Shown here: positions 4,113 to 57,911 of the stretch, piece by piece
How positions within the stretch are numbered: position 1 is the stretch's first letter
Layout: each line of letters begins with the position of its first letter
Source of the DNA: Eubacteriales bacterium
GTDB taxonomy: Bacteria; Bacillota; Clostridia; Oscillospirales; CAG-272
Length of the DNA stretch: 64,000 bases
Reading direction: 5' to 3'
Assembly (NCBI GenBank): GCA_045606685.1
Contig: JAZUSJ010000081.1
Span: 10,439 to 74,438, forward strand
Position numbers and translations under genes: made by a program
Notes under the pieces: model-generated
The model's database searches: none
Seen by the model: only the letters and a program-made list of their open reading frames with translations
What the model was told of the DNA's origin: nothing

Positions 4113-4312
4113 AGTGATATTCTTTGCTTTCGCAAAGAGTGATATTGCCCTTGCGGGCAGTGATATTGTTTGGCTACGCCTCACAGTGATATTCTATTCG
4201 CCCATAAGCTCGCGGAGCGAATACCACTCGGCGTAAGCCGAATATCACTGCGTAGCAATATCACTCGCCAAAGGCGAATAGAACTGGTGTGATACTCCGA
4301 TAAGAGTATCAC
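4113..4312. repeat. array of the 9-mer AGTGATATT (4 direct copies, 3-4 inverted copies) interleaved with short GC-rich hairpins
   Basis: AGTGATATT starts at 4113, 4138, 4159 and 4185. The inverse, AATA(T/C)CACT, starts at 4220, 4241 and 4257, with a degenerate copy at 4277. The terminal palindrome is GTGATACTC-CGATAA-GAGTATCAC at 4288-4311. Each spacer is itself a mini-hairpin: CTTTGC-TTTC-GCAAAG, GCCC-TTGC-GGGC, GGC-TAC-GCC, CGGC-GTAA-GCCG, CGCC-AAA-GGCG. Confidence 0.8.
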
Positions 4313-50642: not shown

Positions 50643-51377
50643 TCAATGGCTGAAGAAATACGGGAAATGCGTATCCTCGATCAATAGCTCGCCGTTCCGG
50701 TCGGTGATTACAATATAGTTGGCTGCATTTTTATCACTGCCGATATCGCTTCGGAACGTTCCGTTATTTTTGTGAATCGAGTACTGAAGAACAAATTCAT
50801 ACTGAGTATAATCACCCAGCTTTTTGTCGGACACCTTTTTTTGTCCCATATTGGTGATCTTGATATCGTAGAGCTGCGTCATGGTAAAGCCGGGATCTGG
50901 CTCAATGCCTTTGTGCTCGAAATAATAGTCGCTGAAGCATGCGTTGTAAGCATCCACGTCACCAGCAATAATGGCGTCTACCATATTGTAAAGCAATGTC
51001 ACACCCATAGCTTGCTTGTCACAGTTGCTTTCATCAAGTACGACCACGGATCCGTACTGGTCGCTGGATGCGTAATAATAAACGCTTCTGTCAAGTGCAA
51101 GGTATTCTTTGTCCTTCATGATGTTATGGTCATAATCAATCGGATAAAAAATATTGGTAAAGTCATTTCCCTGATACTCATTTTTAGCACCGTTGATCCA
51201 TGGGAAATAACCGCTCAGAGTCTGTTCGAGCAAATCGTAAAAGAATGCCGAGAAAATGAAGTACACCAATACGAACGCCACCATAATACAAAACGTAATG
51301 ATAATGATCTTTTTGAGCTTTTTGGTTTGCTCACGCGCACTTCTCGGAATATTTGCCTGTTGATTTTCTTGATTCAC
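50643..51377 (-). CDS. membrane-anchored hypothetical protein
   Basis: GTG start 8 nt after AAGGAG. Basic N-terminus, then one TM helix (IIIITFCIMVAFVLVYFIFSAFF), then a soluble domain with no recognised motif. Confidence 0.65.
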   Translation of the reverse strand: MNQENQQANIPRSAREQTKKLKKIIIITFCIMVAFVLVYFIFSAFFYDLLEQTLSGYFPWINGAKNEYQGNDFTNIFYPIDYDHNIMKDKEYLALDRSVYYYASSDQYGSVVVLDESNCDKQAMGVTLLYNMVDAIIAGDVDAYNACFSDYYFEHKGIEPDPGFTMTQLYDIKITNMGQKKVSDKKLGDYTQYEFVLQYSIHKNNGTFRSDIGSDKNAANYIVITDRNGELLIEDTHFPYFFSH

Positions 51378-51504
51378 AAAGAGATCTCCTTATGTCAGAA
51401 TGATTTATTTTATTATATCACAAAGTCCCGTCAAAAACAAGGTTGATTACAAGGAAAGGTATGAATTTCTTGCAAATTTTTTTGGAATGTTTGCGTCAAA
51501 TGTG

Positions 51505-51533
51505 TTGTATATTTTCAAGGATTGTGGTATAAT
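51505..51533 (+). promoter_or_regulatory. sigma-A-type promoter (TTGTAT-17-TATAAT)
   Basis: TTGTAT at 51505-51510, a 17-nt spacer, TATAAT at 51528-51533. This puts the ORF-track start at 51522 inside the promoter. Confidence 0.55.
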
Positions 51534-51563
51534 AGTATGAATATTTATATCCCGGAGCTAATT

Positions 51564-53438
51564 ATGAAATATCTTGTTTTAATTCCAGACGGAATGGCCG
51601 ATGTAAAGGTCGAACAGTTAAGCGATCAGACTCCCATGCAGGCTGCGTATAAGCCTTGTATGGATACGCTTGCCAAGGAATCCATGGTAGGTATGGTATC
51701 CAACGTACCCGAAGGTATGGTGCCTGAAAGCGACACCGCAAATATGGCTATTTTGTCGTTTGACCCTAAGGTTTATTCCCGCGGTCGCTCTCCCTTGGAG
51801 GCTGTCAGCATGGGAATCGATATGCAGGCGGATGAAACGGCCTTCCGCTGTAATCTCGTCACACTCTCGGAAGATGAGGACGAATATGAGCAGAAAATCA
51901 TGATCGATCATAGCGCGGATGAGATCACTACAGAAGAAGCAGATCAGCTGATCAAAGCTCTGCAGGAGCATTTCGGTAACGATCAACGCACGTTCCATAC
52001 CGGAGTCAGCTACCGCCATTGCTTGATCTGGAAAAACCGCCCCGATCAATATCCTTTTATGCGGCCGCATGACATTCTCGGTCAGTGTATTGCACAGCAT
52101 CTTCCTTTGGCAGAAGGTGGCGAGGAATATTATGCACTCATGAAAGAAAGCTATGAGGTGCTCAACCATCACCCCGTAAATGAAGCCAGAAGAGCCCGCG
52201 GATTGCGTCCTGCAAATTCTGCTTGGCTCTGGAGTCCCGGAAAAAAGCCCACACTTCCCTCCTTTAAAGAAAAATGGGGAATTGACGGTGCTGTAATTTC
52301 GGCTGTGGATCTGATCAAAGGAATCGGACTTTGCGCGGGTATGCAATCCATTGACGTACCCGGCGCTACCGGTAATGTACACACCAATTATGACGGAAAG
52401 GCACAGGCAGCAATTGACGCATTCAAGTCGGGAACGGATTTCGTGTACATCCACGTAGAAGCTCCCGATGAGTGCGGACACCGCGGTGAGATTGAAAACA
52501 AGGTGCTGTCGATCGAGCTGATTGATAAACTGATCCTGAAACCGGTCAGCGAATACCTTGCCGATTGTGGCGAGGATTATAAGATCCTTGTTTTGCCCGA
52601 TCATCCAACGCCTTTGGAAATTCGCACACACTCCTCTGATCCCGTTCCGTTCATGCTATACGATTCACAAAAAATCTACGATGGTGTGGATTGCTTCGAT
52701 GAACAATCCGCAAGTATGACCGAGGTCGTGGTAGAGCACGGACACGATCTGCTGGAAATGGTAATAGAGCGCGATGATACAGAGAAGAATCCGAACGGCA
52801 AAGAATCAAACAAGCAAAAAAAAAGCGGATTCGCCTCGGGATTATTCGACTATCTTGAGATTTTTGTTGTTTCCATAGCCGCTGTCCTGTTGGTGTTTAC
52901 ATTTGGTGCAAGACTTTGTCGCGTCGATGGCGGTTCTATGAAAAACTCTTTTGAGGATGGCCAGATGCTGATCATCAGTAATTTCTTTTACACACCGGAT
53001 AACGGTGACGTGATCGTATTCCATCAGATCGAGTATTTCCAAAAACCGCTTGTCAAGCGCGTGATCGCAACTGGTGGTCAGACTGTTACAATCAACTTTG
53101 AAAGAAAGTCCATTGAGATCAAGAATACAAAAACCGGAGAACCCGTTGCATTTAACGATGAATTCGCTACGTATTACAATCCCGATGAAACAGATTTCGG
53201 TGACCGGTACGCCTGGGAGAACAACTGGGAACACAGTGAACTGTACAAGAAGGTAAACGCTGTATATAATGAGCAGGACGGTTCATACACGTTTGATGTA
53301 CCCGAAGGCATGCTGTTTGTAATGGGCGATAACCGAAATAACTCCTCAGACAGCCGCCTGCTTGGCTTTATTGACGAAAGAACCGTGCTTGGCAAAGCAA
53401 TCGTTCGCGTCAAGCCCTTTGACATTTATCTTGATTAA
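51564..53438 (+). CDS. fusion protein: ApgM-family cofactor-independent phosphoglycerate mutase-like enzyme (proposed homoserine kinase family) + signal peptidase I
   Basis: N-terminal ~400 aa: MKYLVLIPDGMAD...SDTANMAILSFDP...GRSPLEA...AFRCNLVT...IHVEAPDECGH...VLPDHPTP...HSSDPVPFMLY. A linker follows, then the TM helix YLEIFVVSIAAVLLVFTF and LepB boxes: GGSM (Ser), KRVIATGGQTV (Lys), GDNRNNSSDSR. One uninterrupted frame. Confidence 0.85.
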   Translation: MKYLVLIPDGMADVKVEQLSDQTPMQAAYKPCMDTLAKESMVGMVSNVPEGMVPESDTANMAILSFDPKVYSRGRSPLEAVSMGIDMQADETAFRCNLVTLSEDEDEYEQKIMIDHSADEITTEEADQLIKALQEHFGNDQRTFHTGVSYRHCLIWKNRPDQYPFMRPHDILGQCIAQHLPLAEGGEEYYALMKESYEVLNHHPVNEARRARGLRPANSAWLWSPGKKPTLPSFKEKWGIDGAVISAVDLIKGIGLCAGMQSIDVPGATGNVHTNYDGKAQAAIDAFKSGTDFVYIHVEAPDECGHRGEIENKVLSIELIDKLILKPVSEYLADCGEDYKILVLPDHPTPLEIRTHSSDPVPFMLYDSQKIYDGVDCFDEQSASMTEVVVEHGHDLLEMVIERDDTEKNPNGKESNKQKKSGFASGLFDYLEIFVVSIAAVLLVFTFGARLCRVDGGSMKNSFEDGQMLIISNFFYTPDNGDVIVFHQIEYFQKPLVKRVIATGGQTVTINFERKSIEIKNTKTGEPVAFNDEFATYYNPDETDFGDRYAWENNWEHSELYKKVNAVYNEQDGSYTFDVPEGMLFVMGDNRNNSSDSRLLGFIDERTVLGKAIVRVKPFDIYLD

Positions 53439-53458
53439 TCCCCGAAAGGAAAACAAAA

Positions 53459-54337
53459 ATGCCCTCACAGGTAATTCAATGGTTCCCGGGACACATGGCC
53501 AAAACGCGCCGTCTGATCTCGGAGAACCTGAAAAACGTCGACATTATTATTGAAATTCTTGACGCAAGAATTCCATATTCCTCGCGAAACCCCGAAATCG
53601 GCAAGTTGATCGGGGATAAACCCACATTGCTGTTACTCAACAAGGCTTCCCTTGCCGATCCTGCCGCGAGCAAATACTGGGTGCAGCATTATACCAATGA
53701 TCACACCGTATGCATCCTGACAGATTGCATAGGCGGAGAAGGCATCAAGCAACTCAGCCCGGCCATACACGACATACTGATTGAAAAGGTAGAAAGATAC
53801 AAAAACAAAGGAATGACCGGCAGAAAGCTTCGCGCCATGGTGTTGGGAGTCCCCAACGTGGGAAAATCCTCTTTGATCAACAAACTGTGCGGAAACAAAA
53901 AAGCCAAGGTCGAAAACCGTCCCGGTGTTACGGTTGATAAGCAATGGGTAGCTACAAACATCGGCATCGATCTTTTGGATATGCCCGGTATTCTTTGGCC
54001 CAAATTTGAAGAAAAGACTGTTGGCGAAAACCTGGCTATCACAGGCGCGATCAAGGACGATATATTGGACATTGAGGAGATCGCTATGATCCTTTGCGGC
54101 CGTTTGCGCAAGCTCTACCCTGCCCTTTTAAGTGAAAGATACAAGCTGGGTGATCTTTCCCAATATCAGGAAATGAGCGATTACGATCTGATGCTTGCAA
54201 TCGGAAAGAAACGAGGCTTTTTGATCTCGGGCGGCGAAGTGCATTCGGAGCGTACGGCAAATATGCTGTTGGATGAATACCGTGCAGGAAAGATCGGACG
54301 AGTAACGCTGGATACGATTCCCGAGCATAAGGAGTGA
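53459..54337 (+). CDS. rbgA: ribosome biogenesis GTPase A (YlqF/RbgA)
   Basis: IQWFPGHMAKTRR, LLLNKASLAD (circularly permuted G4), GVPNVGKSSLIN (G1), DMPGILWP. Confidence 0.95.
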   Translation: MPSQVIQWFPGHMAKTRRLISENLKNVDIIIEILDARIPYSSRNPEIGKLIGDKPTLLLLNKASLADPAASKYWVQHYTNDHTVCILTDCIGGEGIKQLSPAIHDILIEKVERYKNKGMTGRKLRAMVLGVPNVGKSSLINKLCGNKKAKVENRPGVTVDKQWVATNIGIDLLDMPGILWPKFEEKTVGENLAITGAIKDDILDIEEIAMILCGRLRKLYPALLSERYKLGDLSQYQEMSDYDLMLAIGKKRGFLISGGEVHSERTANMLLDEYRAGKIGRVTLDTIPEHKE

Positions 54338-54344
54338 GGATATC

Positions 54345-54956
54345 ATGCTGCAATATCAACTTGAAACGGAGCTTTACGAGCGCGGATATACACAGGTTTG
54401 CGGTGTGGACGAAGCAGGACGAGGCCCTTTGTGCGGCCCGGTTGTCGCTGCTGCATGCATTCTGCCGTGCGGTCTTGTCATTCCGGAACTGAACGACTCC
54501 AAAAAGCTTTCAGAGAAAAAAAGAGACATATTATTTGAACAGATCAAGGAAAATGCGATCTCTTACAGCATTGCGTGTGCAACCGTGGAGGAGATCGACC
54601 AACTCAACATTTTGGAAGCCACGCTTTTGGCTATGCGTCGTGCGATCGACGGCTTGGAAACAAAAGCGGATTTTGCGTTGATCGACGGCAACGTAGCAAG
54701 AGATTTTCAGATCGATGCCAAGGCCGTCATTTCCGGTGATGCAACGTCACCTTCCATAGCAGCTGCGTCCATTTTGGCCAAGGTCACGCGTGACCGTATG
54801 TGTATTGAGCTTGATGCTGCATATCCGCAATACGGCATTGCCAAGCACAAGGGCTATGGAACAAAAGCACATATGCAGGCCTTGCGTGAATACGGCCCTT
54901 CCCCCATTCACAGAAAACAGTTTATCCGTTTTCTTGATAAAGAGAAGCATGGATAA
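54345..54956 (+). CDS. rnhB: ribonuclease HII
   Basis: VCGVDEAGRGPLCGPVVAAA...DSKKLS...ASILAKVTRD...GYGT..H. Confidence 0.95.
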   Translation: MLQYQLETELYERGYTQVCGVDEAGRGPLCGPVVAAACILPCGLVIPELNDSKKLSEKKRDILFEQIKENAISYSIACATVEEIDQLNILEATLLAMRRAIDGLETKADFALIDGNVARDFQIDAKAVISGDATSPSIAAASILAKVTRDRMCIELDAAYPQYGIAKHKGYGTKAHMQALREYGPSPIHRKQFIRFLDKEKHG

Positions 54957-55401
54957 AGCGCAGGTCGGAAAACGCGGTGAACAGGTCGCCGCAAAATATC
55001 TGAAACGACACGGATACGAGATACTTGAGCGAAATATTCATATTTCTCATCAAGAAATAGATATTATCGCGATCAACCGTGAATGCATTGCTTTTGTCGA
55101 GGTGAAAACACGTTTGCTGGAACCCGGTCGTGCCGATCGTTACACAACGCCATCCGCAGCAGTAACTCCCGAAAAAAGACGGTTTCTATTAAAAGCTGCC
55201 TTTGCTTACATGGGAGAGCACGGATACGAGCTTCAGCCGCGTATGGACGTCATCGAGGTCTATTTAACACCCGATCAGATCGTTCCCCCTCTGTCAAGAC
55301 TTTGGGAGAAGGTAACCGGAATTTTTGGTACACCGAAAAGACAGGTGCTGCGAATCAATCACATTGAAAATGCCTTTGGCTTGAACGGATACATAACGTG
55401 A
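54949..55401 (+). CDS. YraN-family (UPF0102) endonuclease-like protein
   Basis: GKRGEQVAAKYLKRHGYEILERNIHISHQEIDIIA...IAFVEVKTR...AVTPEKRR. It carries an insertion of about 25 aa before the C-terminal INHIENAF. The ATG at 54949 overlaps the rnhB end. Confidence 0.8.
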   Translation: MDKAQVGKRGEQVAAKYLKRHGYEILERNIHISHQEIDIIAINRECIAFVEVKTRLLEPGRADRYTTPSAAVTPEKRRFLLKAAFAYMGEHGYELQPRMDVIEVYLTPDQIVPPLSRLWEKVTGIFGTPKRQVLRINHIENAFGLNGYIT

Positions 55402-55421
55402 AGTCGGAATGGAGTAAAAAC

Positions 55422-56384
55422 ATGAAATTATCCTTATTTGATACGCACTGCGATACGGCATACGAGTTGTATCACAGAAATCAGGGACTGTGGGAGAATA
55501 CCTGCCACATTTCCCTTTCCAACGCGCAGGATTATGAGAAATACGTGCAGTTATTTGCGATATGGTCCAACCGCAGGCTGGATGATCAGACCTGTTGGGA
55601 GCATTTCTTGCATATTGCCGATAACTTTGATAAGCTTATCCTGGAAGAAAGCGGAAAAATCGCACGAGTTACGAACGCGGATGATTTGCAAGCAACACTC
55701 GCCTCGGGTAAAAGAGCTGCAGTGCTTGCCGTTGAAGACGCTCGCTTGCTGGCCGGTGACATTGACAGGCTTGACGTACTGTACGACAAGGGCGTGCGCT
55801 GCATGACGCTTTTGTGGGGCGGCGAGTCCTGTATTGGTGGCTCGCACGACACTTCTTCTGGCTTGACCGATTTTGGTAAGCTTGTCACGTCCAAGTGCTT
55901 TGAGCTTGGCATCGTGCCTGATATTTCGCATGCATCCGTGCAAAGCGTTGATGACGTGATCGAGATCGCGCATCGGTACAAAAAGCCCTTTATCGCAACA
56001 CATTCCAATTCCTATTCCGCATATGCACACACAAGAAATTTGCGTGACCGACATCTTACAGAGTTGATGGCACTTGGCGGCATTGTTGGAGTGAGCATGT
56101 GCTGCATTCATTTGCGGGATTGTTCACAGCAAAATGCGGGCATTGATGACGTTGTAAGACATATTGACCGATACATGGAGCTGGGTGCGCAGGATCACAT
56201 CTGCTTTGGCTGTGACTTTGACGGCACAGACCTGCCAACAGGCATTATACACGTTGGGGATCTTCAAAAAATTGCAGATCGCCTTACAGCCCTTGGCTAT
56301 AACCAAGAACTGCTTGATAAGCTGTTCTGGCAAAACGCATATACATTTTTCAAAAAGCAACTTTCAACACAATCGGAGACCTAA
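55422..56384 (+). CDS. dipeptidase, peptidase family M19-like
   Basis: LFDTHCDTAYEL...CMTLLWGGESCIGGS...PDISHAS...IATHSNSYS...GCDFDG fits the TIM-barrel renal-dipeptidase pattern. ATG at 55422 after GGAG. Confidence 0.75.
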   Translation: MKLSLFDTHCDTAYELYHRNQGLWENTCHISLSNAQDYEKYVQLFAIWSNRRLDDQTCWEHFLHIADNFDKLILEESGKIARVTNADDLQATLASGKRAAVLAVEDARLLAGDIDRLDVLYDKGVRCMTLLWGGESCIGGSHDTSSGLTDFGKLVTSKCFELGIVPDISHASVQSVDDVIEIAHRYKKPFIATHSNSYSAYAHTRNLRDRHLTELMALGGIVGVSMCCIHLRDCSQQNAGIDDVVRHIDRYMELGAQDHICFGCDFDGTDLPTGIIHVGDLQKIADRLTALGYNQELLDKLFWQNAYTFFKKQLSTQSET

Positions 56385-56386
56385 TT

Positions 56387-57877
56387 ATGAGATTTCAAAG
56401 CACAAGAGATTCAAAACAAGAAAAATTCACGTCTGCACAAGTCATTCGTAAGGGACTTGCCGATGATGGCGGCCTGTTTGTGCCGGATAGCATTCCCTCT
56501 TTGAGTAAAGACGAGATCATCGAGCTTTGCTCCATGGATTACGCACACAGAGCTGCATATATCCTTGGAAAATATCTGACAGACTATACCTACCAAGAGC
56601 TTCTGGAGGATTGTACCAAGGCATACAGCCCCACATCCTTTGTTGGGGGTGCTGCTCCTTTATGTAAAATCGGTGATAACGTATATACGCAAGAGCTGTG
56701 GCACGGCCCTACGGCAGCATTTAAGGACATGGCTTTGCAGATCATGCCCCGACTGCTTTCGCGCGCACTCAAAAAGACAGGCGAAGACCGCAAGGCTTTG
56801 ATTTTGGTTGCAACCTCCGGTGACACGGGAAAGGCTGCGTTGGAAGGCTATCGCGACGTGGATCAGGTATGTATCTCGGTGTTTTATCCCGTCAACGGTG
56901 TCAGCAAGATCCAAAAGCTTCAAATGGTAACCCAGCAGGGCGAAAACGTGAATGTTTGCGCCATTCACGGCAACTTTGACGATGCACAAACAGGCGTCAA
57001 AAAGATCTTTGCAGATACAAATGCTGCAAAAGAGCTCGATCAAAAGGGGTTCTTCCTGTCCAGCGCAAACTCGATCAACTGGGGCAGACTTGCGCCGCAG
57101 ATCGTATACTACGTCTCCGCTTACTGTGATCTGCTCAACAGCGAAGCGCTTTCGGAAGGCCAGTGCTTCAACGTCTGCGTTCCTACGGGAAATTTTGGCA
57201 ATATATTCGCAGCATACCTTGCAAAGCAGATGGGGATTCCGATCGGCAAGCTGATCTGTGCCTCCAACAAGAATAACATCCTGACTGATTTTCTGAATAC
57301 CGGCACATATGACCGCAACCGTCAATTCCATCTGACCATGTCCCCCTCTATGGATATTCTGATCTCCAGCAATCTGGAACGTCTTCTGTACTTTGTTGCA
57401 GGTGCTGATCAGACGAGAGAATATATGGAATCACTTTCAAAGAACGGTGCATATACTGTCAGCAATGCAGTCAAATCCCGTATTGACAATGATTTTTGCG
57501 GATTTTTTGCTGATGAAGAAAAAACAGCACAAACCATTCGCAAGTATCAGGAAAGCGGCTATTTGATGGATACACACACAGCTGTTGGCGTTTGCTGTGC
57601 CGAACAGTACATGCAAAACAGCGGTGATACCGTAACACCTCTTGTAGTCGCATCCACTGCGAGCCCCTATAAATTTGCTGCAGACGTATACGCCTCTTTG
57701 GGTAAGAACGCCCCCGAGGATCCTTTGCAGTCGCAGGCATTGCTGTCTGAATATACCGGCACGCAGATCCCCTATCCGCTTGTCGGTCTCGGTGAACGTC
57801 AGATTCGATTTGACAGAACCGTTGATGCGCAGGATATTCTTGCAGAGGTATTCCGATTCGCCGACACACAAAACTAA
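56387..57877 (+). CDS. thrC: threonine synthase (long form)
   Basis: FQSTR...LWHGPTAAFKDMALQ (PLP Lys)...ATSGDTGKAA...VPTGNFGN. Confidence 0.95.
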   Translation: MRFQSTRDSKQEKFTSAQVIRKGLADDGGLFVPDSIPSLSKDEIIELCSMDYAHRAAYILGKYLTDYTYQELLEDCTKAYSPTSFVGGAAPLCKIGDNVYTQELWHGPTAAFKDMALQIMPRLLSRALKKTGEDRKALILVATSGDTGKAALEGYRDVDQVCISVFYPVNGVSKIQKLQMVTQQGENVNVCAIHGNFDDAQTGVKKIFADTNAAKELDQKGFFLSSANSINWGRLAPQIVYYVSAYCDLLNSEALSEGQCFNVCVPTGNFGNIFAAYLAKQMGIPIGKLICASNKNNILTDFLNTGTYDRNRQFHLTMSPSMDILISSNLERLLYFVAGADQTREYMESLSKNGAYTVSNAVKSRIDNDFCGFFADEEKTAQTIRKYQESGYLMDTHTAVGVCCAEQYMQNSGDTVTPLVVASTASPYKFAADVYASLGKNAPEDPLQSQALLSEYTGTQIPYPLVGLGERQIRFDRTVDAQDILAEVFRFADTQN

Positions 57878-57884
57878 AAATAAA

Positions 57885-57911
57885 CGGACATCGGCCAATG
57901 GCCGATGTCCG
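57885..57911. terminator. terminator hairpin shared by convergent thrC and the DUF1540 gene
   Basis: 12-bp perfect stem CGGACATCGGCC-AAT-GGCCGATGTCCG. The U-tract is on the minus-strand side (TTTATTTTT). Confidence 0.7.

Follow-up and report, generated by a model that had tools for sequence, protein, structure and literature searches.

The window analysed here, a stretch of 64,000 nucleotides, contains a homK-lepB open reading frame that is a genuine, inherited fusion, in which an ApgM-family domain (aa 1-402) is followed by a disordered linker of about 25 residues, one transmembrane (TM) helix and a complete type I signal peptidase. The fused product would be one polypeptide carrying both domains, predicted to be bitopic in the membrane and about 70 kDa in size. 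The account that we consider likely is that of a genuine homK-lepB fusion with two independent activities, which originated as a nearly neutral accident of adjacency and is maintained in a ratchet-like manner. The elements of the fused gene are the following.

51554..51557, + strand: Shine-Dalgarno-like GGAG, 6 nt 5' of ATG 51564
51564..53438, + strand: homK-lepB fusion ORF, 624 aa plus stop (ATG 51564, TAA 53436-53438)
51564..52769, + strand: HomK/ApgM-family metalloenzyme domain, aa 1-402, predicted cytoplasmic (PRK04200 aa 1-402, TIGR02535 aa 1-401)
51729..51731, + strand: Ser56 codon AGC, predicted phospho-accepting catalytic serine of HomK (equals S56 of BT2402; invariant)
52458..52460, + strand: Glu299 codon GAA, specificity-determining residue (Glu in HomK, Lys in phosphoglycerate mutases; from alignment)
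52770..52841, + strand: disordered Lys-rich linker, aa 403-426 (pLDDT < 50 at aa 404-426)
52816..52824, + strand: A9 homopolymer inside the linker (read from the sequence)
52842..52910, + strand: single TM anchor, aa 427-449, FDYLEIFVVSIAAVLLVFTFGA, predicted N-in/C-out (hydrophobic 22-aa segment; AF2 helix aa 423-447)
52911..53435, + strand: type I signal peptidase (S26) catalytic domain, aa 450-624, predicted extracytoplasmic (PF10502 and TIGR02227)

Architecture and conservation of the fused frame

An earlier note on this DNA had described a single ORF joining an ApgM-family metalloenzyme to a full type I signal peptidase, and both the ORF and the profile matches agree with it. The Pfam matches are far beyond chance (PhosphMutase 7.9e-56, Metalloenzyme 1e-40, Peptidase_S26 3.5e-34), and each of the NCBIfam matches exceeds its curated cut-off (PRK04200 513 bits, TIGR02535 492 bits, sigpep_I_bact 112 bits). 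The motifs quoted in that note are found where it had placed them, both in the enzyme (DGMAD aa 9-13, PDHPTP 345-350, HSSDPVPF 356-363) and in the peptidase (GGSM 456-459, KRVIA 498-502, GDNRNNSSDSR 588-598). The quoted linker DDTEKNPNGKESNKQKKSGFASG and TM segment are likewise both present in the fusion protein; judged by pLDDT, the linker measures 24-25 aa (aa 403-426) and not about 35 aa. The AF2 model shows two well-folded domains, confident across aa 1-400 of the HomK domain, separated by a linker with pLDDT < 50 and the TM helix. The start at 51564 gives a residue numbering equal to that of BT2402, and the GGAG preceding it is found at identical spacing in the fused orthologues L002 and L027. 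Alternative upstream starts are TTG 51522 and ATG 51537, the latter giving a 633-aa form as in P0001, a protein from an NCBI assembly that is 100% identical to the window fusion protein.

In the C-terminal part, PF10502 covers aa 429-615 (118.6 bits) and TIGR02227 aa 432-620 (112.5 bits against a cut-off of 47). Ser458-Met459 (Ser458 at 52935-52937) and Lys498-Arg499 (Lys498 at 53055-53057) are invariant among 73 fused proteins, as are G588, D589, N590, R591, D596, S597 and R598 of Box E, and an FDY.E motif is common to the fusion and to unfused LepB proteins. The topology put forward in the earlier note, N-in, one TM helix and C-out, holds as a prediction. Its main basis is that N-in is the usual topology of Gram-positive signal peptidases; the charges flanking the helix (four K/R and one D/E before it, three K/R and two D/E after it) are weakly consistent with the same orientation. 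One N-in/C-out helix would anchor the fusion, and the domain carrying Ser458 and Lys498 would remove signal peptides outside the membrane as usual.

The fusion is not peculiar to the window genome and is conserved across a clade. A search of related genomes for the same fused architecture, as the earlier note had proposed, found it in dozens of independent assemblies and in diverged relatives: about 70 protein clusters of 595-663 aa, from independent assemblies, share all three Pfam domains over 100% coverage, with identities of 50-100%. The catalytic residues of both domains are invariant across the fused proteins, and the dN/dS values between the window and L027, 0.019 for HomK and 0.049 for S26 at dS 0.8-1.0, place both domains under strong purifying selection. 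In the same comparison dN reaches 0.25 in the linker vs 0.02-0.04 in the domains. The linker differs among relatives in length and sequence and the frame is kept in every case, also across a 3-codon indel that separates 97%-identical relatives. An assembly or sequencing artefact, such as an indel in the A9 homopolymer deleting a stop codon, might be suspected from the presence of a 9-base homopolymer within the junction and from a lineage known from metagenome assemblies only, but this explanation can be regarded as refuted, because the comparative data show the same fused frame. The frame is fused in over 15 independent assemblies at >=92% identity and in the roughly 70 clusters down to 50%, it survives a synonymous divergence of about 1, and a one-base shift at A9 would leave LepB without a start codon.

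The fused genes also inform the question of how LepB is translated. A scan of the junctions for an in-frame start preceded by a Shine-Dalgarno sequence 4-12 nt upstream found none for LepB in eight fused genes (0/8), and the junction in three of the eight (L002, L003, L025) is devoid of any ATG, GTG or TTG. Since the fused genes have no ribosome-binding site and start codon for LepB, the peptidase is probably made only as part of the fusion. It is quite unlikely that separate HomK and LepB proteins arise from the one ORF, whether by internal initiation (e.g., at Met399), by cleavage of the linker or by transcriptional slippage at A9, which would yield soluble HomK. The in-frame ATG 52758 where the HomK domain ends, the disordered and exposed linker and the A8-A10 runs in the linker DNA of 5/9 fused loci could all be read in this direction. 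However, this ATG (Met399), which the earlier note had suggested as a possible LepB start, is neither preceded by a Shine-Dalgarno sequence nor conserved, the junctions of L002, L003 and L025 offer no possible start codon, the A-runs are absent from L002, L003, L028 and L086, a frameshift at A9 yields no LepB, and no conserved cleavage motif was seen in the linker.

A probable HomK domain in a gene cluster with thrC

The earlier note had called the N-terminal domain phosphoglycerate-mutase-like; its placement in the ApgM family stands, and its identity is refined here to most likely that of HomK/ThrB2, a BT2402-type homoserine phosphotransferase, on the grounds of profile matches and conserved residues. 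TIGR02535 is matched with 492.4 bits against a trusted cut-off of 446.3, with aa 1-401 aligned to profile positions 1-396 of 397, and the sister mutase models score slightly higher (TIGR00306 505.2 bits, cut-off 320; PRK04200 513, cut-off 426). Residues D9, S56, E299, D346 and H347 have identical numbers in the window protein and in BT2402, and across 121 homologues there is no variation, or next to none, at D9, D13, S56, D57, E299, D302, H306, D346, H347 and H356. Glu299 (HVEAPDECGH) shows no exception among 73 fused and 48 unfused relatives, and in the alignment its counterpart in the solved mutase 3idd is Lys. ApgM enzymes are recognized by Lys at this substrate-specificity position, where it suits the anionic phosphoglycerate, and the domain, having Glu299 instead, is not filed as a mutase, under a Glu/Lys rule derived from a single preprint and a predicted complex. 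An E. coli thrB mutant is rescued by BT2402 (bioRxiv 10.1101/2024.10.14.618325), and DET_RS08350, classified as TIGR00306, is a HomK by complementation; O-phosphohomoserine formation has been shown only for these two proteins.

The fusion belongs to a tight cluster on the same strand, in which the following features lie downstream.

53459..54337, + strand: rbgA (ylqF), ribosome-biogenesis GTPase, next gene after the fusion (TIGR03596, 333 bits)
54345..54956, + strand: rnhB, RNase HII (NF000594, 267 bits)
54949..55401, + strand: yraN (UPF0102) family gene (start inferred as the first ATG fitting the family match)
55398..56384, + strand: Peptidase_M19-family dipeptidase-like gene (PF01244, 230 bits)
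56387..57877, + strand: thrC, threonine synthase, last gene of the cluster (TIGR00260, 244 bits; Thr_synth_N, PALP, THR4_C)
57885..57911, no strand assigned: strong 12-bp GC-rich hairpin directly 3' of thrC (scored on the minus strand; stem palindromic)

The lepB-rbgA-rnhB-yraN arrangement recognized in the earlier note is present, with lepB in its usual position, as it is in L001. The best E-value from the YraN-family NCBIfam models is 4e-25, the full-length ones lying below their curated cut-offs, and the orthologous gene in L001 carries PF02021. Threonine synthase uses O-phosphohomoserine, the product of HomK, and thrC lies downstream in 5/5 fused and 49 unfused related loci among those with enough flank. 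HomK, as an ApgM-family enzyme standing in for ThrB in threonine synthesis, would make O-phosphohomoserine in the cytoplasm for the ThrC encoded 3 kb downstream. The hairpin likely marks the end of the transcription unit, and a promoter and terminator scan found nothing else over shuffled background. An Rfam scan of the whole window at gathering thresholds found only a far-off Gut-1 RNA and none at 51378-51563 upstream of the fusion, and tblastn found neither a second S26 peptidase nor a second HomK in the 64-kb window.

That the N-terminal domain is a true cofactor-independent phosphoglycerate mutase (ApgM), the fusion tethering a glycolytic enzyme, is very unlikely. PRK04200 and TIGR00306 do pass their cut-offs with scores a little over that of TIGR02535, and NCBI and JGI label the relatives 'cofactor-independent phosphoglycerate mutase'. 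Yet the trusted cut-off of TIGR02535 is passed too, the invariant Glu299 occupies the position of the mutase Lys, the gene is kept in one cluster with thrC, and the example of DET_RS08350 demonstrates that a TIGR00306-classified protein can prove to be a HomK. In addition, in the P0132 cluster discussed below, the loss of metal ligands coincides with the absence of thrC.

Origin, recurrence and persistence of the fusion

Among 77 classifiable species representatives, homK and lepB are adjacent but separate in 70 and fused in seven. A stop codon between the domains, whose constant presence in orthologues the earlier note would have taken as evidence against a fusion, is therefore usual but not universal, and the fused state is a minority but a stable one. 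In the separate loci the spacer between homK and lepB is 1-84 nt long; L001, for example, has homK (418 aa), a 21-nt gap and lepB (220 aa), followed by rbgA-rnhB-yraN-M19-thrC, while homK and lepB of L037 overlap in a near-fusion. Unfused LepB proteins begin with MNEE... or MSEE... after an AAGGAG and have a tail of 20-35 aa before the FDY.E-TM motif. In this clade of uncultured gut Clostridia (Oscillospiraceae/Eubacteriales MAGs), loss of the homK stop codon, of the short spacer with its ribosome-binding site and of the lepB start codon would have produced the fusion, and the cytoplasmic N-terminal tail of LepB would then have become the disordered linker of about 25 aa. The present linker, in this reconstruction from sequence, appears to correspond to that former tail plus a read-through spacer. 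The loss of a stop codon between adjoining genes, already suggested in the earlier note, is thus probably the origin, the neighbours being separate in relatives.

Fitch parsimony on both the HomK and the LepB neighbour-joining (NJ) trees gives 9-10 changes between the fused and unfused states with an unfused root. The number of independent fusions is rough, as the trees are quick ones without support values, and the sampling is biased toward loci having both domains. The fused clades are congruent between the two trees. Together, this suggests that the fusion arose repeatedly, from an unfused ancestor, out of a widespread adjacent homK-lepB pair. An ancestral fusion, first suggested by deep fused branches in the initial tree, was rejected because the hit list had been ordered by the score of the whole protein, so that distant fused proteins came out ahead of unfused ones just as distant; once species-representative loci were added to the tree, the parsimony root became unfused, and the MNEE-type start common to the unfused LepB proteins also points to an unfused ancestor. 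A frameshift at A9 was rejected as well as the cause of the fusion, as a shift in either direction terminates the HomK frame inside some 20 codons and gives LepB no ATG, GTG or TTG before the TM helix.

A special case is represented by P0132 and P0270, which both have D9E, D57V, D346N and H347V/I and intact peptidase residues. The N-terminal domain of these proteins shows 61% identity vs 74% for the C-terminal domain and thus diverges faster, the reverse of what is seen in intact relatives, and the P0132 locus (one of the clade's two members) has neither M19 nor thrC. Having lost its metal ligands, the HomK domain of these proteins is presumably catalytically dead while still attached to an intact LepB. 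We propose that the fusion forms readily, many relatives being a single small mutation short of it, and that it is difficult to reverse, since the translation of LepB then relies on the homK start; this would explain both its recurrence and the survival of a dead HomK in P0132 and P0270. The situation seems ratchet-like: an essential peptidase without start signals of its own cannot easily shed the domain upstream of it, even a dead one.

Under this account the HomK and LepB activities would be independent and the fusion a nearly neutral accident of adjacency. The earlier note had thought of a functional reason for tethering the enzyme to the secretion apparatus, an idea that is unsupported to date, and no sign of functional coupling between HomK and LepB was found. 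It is unlikely that the fusion is adaptive, in the sense that selection repeatedly favoured HomK at the membrane or beside the secretion machinery, be it for a membrane-associated phosphate donor or partner, for fixed 1:1 co-expression or for cross-regulation with LepB. What speaks for such selection is that there were seemingly several independent fusions, each kept over long divergence, that the phosphate donor of HomK is not known from the HomK literature, and that a second, unrelated class of membrane-anchored HomK exists. The latter consists of eight further 50%-identity clusters of 974-1123 aa, in which an intact HomK precedes a charged linker, a single TM helix and an extensive extracytoplasmic part; they occur in unrelated genomic contexts away from lepB and thrC and therefore represent a separate phenomenon. 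On the other hand, the genes are separate in 70/77 relatives and most HomK proteins are soluble and of about 400 aa, the linker evolves fast, varies among relatives and carries no conserved interaction motif, the two domains do not touch in the AF2 model and have the membrane lying between them, and a ratchet accounts better for the dead HomK of P0132 and P0270 than a selected enzymatic tether does. The broader proposition that membrane tethering is selected, the LepB fusions and the 1000-1100 aa HomK-linker-TM-ectodomain family both meaning that HomK works better at the membrane, appears quite improbable. If it were correct, HomK might use a membrane-associated donor or partner, or link threonine synthesis to envelope or secretion status, and the fusions would offer a direct handle on how HomK obtains its phosphate.

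Significance and relation to known systems

Neither full-text literature searches nor term look-ups in the HomK/ThrB2 papers found a description of a HomK/ApgM-signal peptidase fusion, in line with the earlier note, whose author knew of none. Current labels, 'cofactor-independent phosphoglycerate mutase' or 'signal peptidase I', each miss the bifunctional HomK-LepB protein, and pathway tools that seek ThrB/HomK or count signal peptidases may misjudge these gut Clostridia. The locus illustrates clearly how unrelated neighbouring genes can fuse in nature, repeatedly and across a low barrier, and cautions against inferring functional linkage from every fusion protein.

With ApgM (PDB 3idd, 3kd8, 2zkt) the N-terminal domain shares the fold family and the metal-binding motifs, with matches of 1e-51 to 1e-55 to the solved structures, but it differs in the substrate-side Glu299 in place of Lys and in a genomic context that points to threonine synthesis. 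It resembles HomK/ThrB2 (BT2402 of Bacteroides thetaiotaomicron; TIGR02535) in the full-length model match above the trusted cut-off, in Ser56, the metal ligands D9/D346/H347 and Glu299 at matching numbers, and in its co-localization with a threonine-pathway gene. Unlike the described HomK proteins, which are soluble and of about 400 aa, it runs on into a linker, a TM helix and a signal peptidase; moreover, a hom/asd operon has been reported in Bacteroidetes and many Firmicutes, whereas here the pathway gene is thrC, four housekeeping genes away. As in 'Rosetta stone' fusions of co-transcribed genes, same-strand neighbours seem to have merged by loss of stop, spacer and start while relatives keep the separate state, but HomK and LepB have no known pathway or physical relationship and are found on opposite sides of the membrane, which makes the usual inference of a functional link doubtful here. 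Finally, the C-terminal part is organized like a Gram-positive type I signal peptidase (S26A; B. subtilis SipS/SipT type; TIGR02227): a single predicted TM anchor leads into a catalytic domain that has the SM serine, the KR lysine and the GDNR...DSR boxes, and it is found in the usual place upstream of rbgA-rnhB-yraN. It departs from that type in that the peptidase part has no start codon of its own and the cytoplasmic N-terminal tail of 20-35 aa is swapped for a folded 400-aa enzyme, so that the anchor has become an internal rather than an N-terminal signal-anchor.

Domain architecture and gene neighbourhood

The window contains at 51564-53438 (+) one uninterrupted reading frame of 624 codons, with a GGAG 6 nt 5' of its ATG. 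The earlier note had read it as an ApgM-family domain, here called HomK for reasons given in the last section, joined to a complete type I signal peptidase (LepB); Pfam and NCBIfam matches agree, and every motif that the note quoted lies where it was said to lie.

Domain matches in the fused protein
aa 1-369, Metalloenzyme (Pfam, 1e-40)
aa 37-206, PhosphMutase (Pfam, 7.9e-56)
aa 1-402, complete cofactor-independent-mutase-type domain (NCBIfam, well over the curated cut-off)
aa 429-615, Peptidase_S26 (Pfam, 3.5e-34)
aa 432-620, complete bacterial signal peptidase I (NCBIfam, well over the curated cut-off)

AlphaFold2 modelling with 21 fused homologues folds the two domains with confidence, gives the linker a pLDDT below 50 (aa 404-426) and predicts a long helix, the membrane anchor, at aa 423-447. 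Gram-positive signal peptidases usually lie N-in/C-out, and the weak charge bias around the hydrophobic segment (4 K/R and 1 D/E in the 15 residues N-terminal of it, 3 K/R and 2 D/E in the 15 C-terminal) is consistent with this orientation.

The fusion is the first gene of a tightly packed same-strand cluster (gaps of at most 21 nt, or overlaps) that continues with rbgA, rnhB, yraN, an M19-family gene and thrC and is followed by a strong hairpin. The lepB-rbgA-rnhB-yraN order, which had been described as a conserved arrangement, is present both here and in the unfused relative L001. ThrC uses the product of HomK. Every fused locus with sufficient flank (five) has thrC downstream, as do 49 unfused loci. 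Further features of the region and the window are:

51564-57911, homK and thrC bracketing the housekeeping block lepB-rbgA-rnhB-yraN and the M19-family dipeptidase-like gene; the bracket recurs with M19 in 36 unfused related loci and without it in 13 more
50643-51377 (-), divergent 244-aa ORF just 5' of the fusion, whose N-terminus is basic and which has a single predicted TM segment; no match in Pfam or NCBIfam
4216-4286 (-), Gut-1 RNA (RF01706) at 50.9 bits, barely over the gathering score of 50; an Rfam scan of the window found nothing else

Conservation of the fusion and its probable origin from adjacent genes

It is scarcely conceivable that the fusion is an artefact. A run of nine A lies at the junction (52816-52824), where a one-base shift would stop the upstream frame after ~20 codons and leave the peptidase without an ATG, GTG or TTG ahead of its anchor, so that an indel in this run could not have joined two genes and is ruled out as the cause. 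The comparative evidence is stronger. Among 5.8 billion proteins searched, ~70 clusters of 595-663 aa from NCBI, ENA, JGI and Logan assemblies carry all three domains at 100% query coverage and 50-100% identity; their linkers vary in length and sequence, the frame is always kept, and relatives at 97% identity show a clean 3-codon linker deletion. Between the window and its 93%-identical orthologue in locus L027, synonymous divergence is 0.8-1.0 and dN/dS only 0.019 in the N-terminal domain and 0.049 in the peptidase, the linker having a non-synonymous rate ~10 times that of the domains. Across 73 fused proteins, neither domain shows any change at its catalytic and metal-binding positions. One fused clade (P0062-P0067, P0072, P0073, P0112, P0132 and P0270) has a ~15-aa insertion right after the peptidase catalytic Ser-Met box (…SSMYPTLIGKPTG…YT…), which the other fused clades lack.

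A one-genome-per-species scan gave 80 further loci (L002-L081). Each comes from a metagenome-assembled genome under the label Oscillospiraceae, Eubacteriales or Clostridia, and animal guts are the source of many. In L001, homK (418 aa) is followed after a 21-nt gap by a separate lepB (220 aa) and then by rbgA-rnhB-yraN-M19-thrC. The comparison of fused with separate genes that the earlier note proposed, made by reading frames on these 81 loci, finds seven fused and 70 in which homK and lepB are neighbours but distinct genes, 30 of these pairs sharing a frame and 40 not, beside the ~70 fused clusters of the protein search; in the other four no lepB match was detected, mostly owing to a contig end. 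Unfused HomK ends in '...GYTLMELLVK*', a spacer of 1-84 nt bears an AAGGAG-like site, and LepB begins with 'MNEE...' or 'MSEE...' and a charged tail of 20-35 aa. Since this tail precedes an FDY.E-hydrophobic motif that marks the anchor start in unfused LepB and fused proteins alike, the linker is, judged by sequence, the old LepB tail. In locus L037 (7172-7277), homK runs on into a Lys/Asn-rich tail (…KQKRKENKNGQKSKNQNNR*) that shares 35 nt, in a different frame, with the start of lepB; this looks like an intermediate one frameshift short of fusion.

Two neighbour-joining trees, one from 192 HomK parts and one from 140 LepB parts, split the fused proteins into a matching set of separate clades with unfused ones interspersed, and Fitch parsimony places 10 and 9 state changes on them, respectively, with an unfused root. 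Because the trees are rough and carry no support values, and one 'unfused' label within the query clade is a truncated protein, we claim only that several independent fusions are suggested. Fusion rather than fission is supported by the MNEE-type start and ribosome-binding site common to unfused genes of different clades, and losing one stop would be much easier than gaining a stop, a Shine-Dalgarno (SD) sequence and a start together. The best 150 matches among 1.8 billion representatives (50% clustering) include three fused proteins, P0064, P0132 and the partial P0145.

A probable bifunctional protein and a relic clade

An SD-preceded in-frame ATG, GTG or TTG at the junction was found in none of eight fused genes examined, three of which have no candidate start there whatever, so LepB in these genomes appears to be made solely within the fusion, as its C-terminal portion. 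The internal ATG at 52758, raised earlier as a possible LepB start, does not fit this role: it has no SD, and its Met399 is Leu or another residue in most relatives. In five of nine fused genes (window 52816-52824, L004, L025, L027, L031) the linker DNA contains A8-A10 runs, read as lysine codons, and runs of this length are known transcriptional slippage sites. Separate products from the one frame are nevertheless quite unlikely; they could come from slippage there or from cleavage of the exposed linker, neither feature being conserved across fused clades. Slippage, if real, would yield a truncated soluble HomK without LepB.

What we regard as the probable explanation is a bifunctional bitopic membrane protein: neighbouring homK and lepB would have merged across a low barrier that is hard to recross, and the two halves would act independently, one on either side of the membrane. 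Adaptive tethering, the main rival, seems unlikely; the recurrence of the fusion and a second class of HomK proteins with a membrane anchor lend it some weight, but unfused genomes outnumber fused ones 70:7, the linker is unconstrained, and one small fused clade has a dead HomK domain.

Members of the dead-domain clade
P0132 (609 aa), NCBI GCA_016648615.1, fused, HomK residues changed
P0270 (610 aa, named 'signal peptidase I' at NCBI), locus L086 4028-5860, fused, HomK residues changed

In both, the metal and catalytic residues of HomK are altered alike (D9E, D57V, D346N, H347V/I), and all their peptidase residues are intact. They are 61% identical in the N-domain and 74% in the peptidase, the reverse of intact fused relatives (83-88% and 65-72%). 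The P0132 locus reads fusion-rbgA-rnhB-yraN-Metallophos-tig-clpP-clpX, lacking both M19 and thrC, whereas the window keeps M19-thrC within an otherwise identical order; the P0270 contig stops after yraN and is uninformative on thrC. In the simplest reading, threonine synthesis would have been lost first and HomK activity next, the dead domain being retained because the essential peptidase depends on it for its translation start and perhaps its folding context. Such a relic would fit a ratchet.

The second class comprises eight clusters (50% identity) of proteins 974-1123 aa long with an N-terminal intact HomK domain (P0124, P0125, P0127, P0128, P0130, P0136, P0141, P0151; loci L082-L085). They keep D9, S56, the specificity Glu and the D-H pair, except that P0141 is N-terminally truncated and lacks the D9 region. 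In P0124 and P0127, whose full sequences were read, HomK leads into a low-complexity acidic linker, then a basic stretch, a single TM helix and a predicted extracytoplasmic region of ~450-500 aa; Pfam at 1e-5 finds nothing beyond HomK in five scanned members. Their genes lie away from lepB and thrC in unrelated contexts (adjoining a two-component system, for example, or with cysS close by). On these predicted features, the class is a second, independent route of HomK membrane anchoring.

The fused proteins are already in public databases under partial names. Our literature search found no published description of the HomK/ApgM-signal peptidase architecture; the novelty is this architecture, both component families being known. 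A specialist would see in it less a surprise than a tidy example of how gene fusions evolve and a helpful correction to annotation.

The N-terminal domain compared with HomK and mutases

The N-domain passes PRK04200 (513 bits), TIGR00306 apgM (505) and TIGR02535 (492, cut-off 446), the last a 'proposed homoserine kinase' family now named HomK or ThrB2. According to a preprint (bioRxiv 10.1101/2024.10.14.618325), BT2402 of Bacteroides thetaiotaomicron is needed to make threonine and rescues a thrB mutant of E. coli, as does DET_RS08350, a mutase by TIGRFAMs classification; a Glu (E299 in BT2402) is proposed to discriminate HomK from mutases, in which Lys is near-universal. thrB2 has been reported in ~100 Firmicute gut genomes, mostly without thrB (Ashniev et al., PMC9026213).

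The earlier placement in the ApgM family holds, with PRK04200 and TIGR00306 passed; the database name of phosphoglycerate mutase is probably wrong. Because of the TIGR02535 match, the BT2402-like residues, Glu299 and the cluster with thrC, the N-domain is very probably HomK. A true mutase is very unlikely, since none of the 121 relatives, fused or unfused, departs from Glu299. The window protein and BT2402 have D9, S56, E299, D346 and H347 in common, at the same numbering, whereas in the solved structure of the Thermoplasma mutase (3idd) the residue aligned to Glu299 is Lys.
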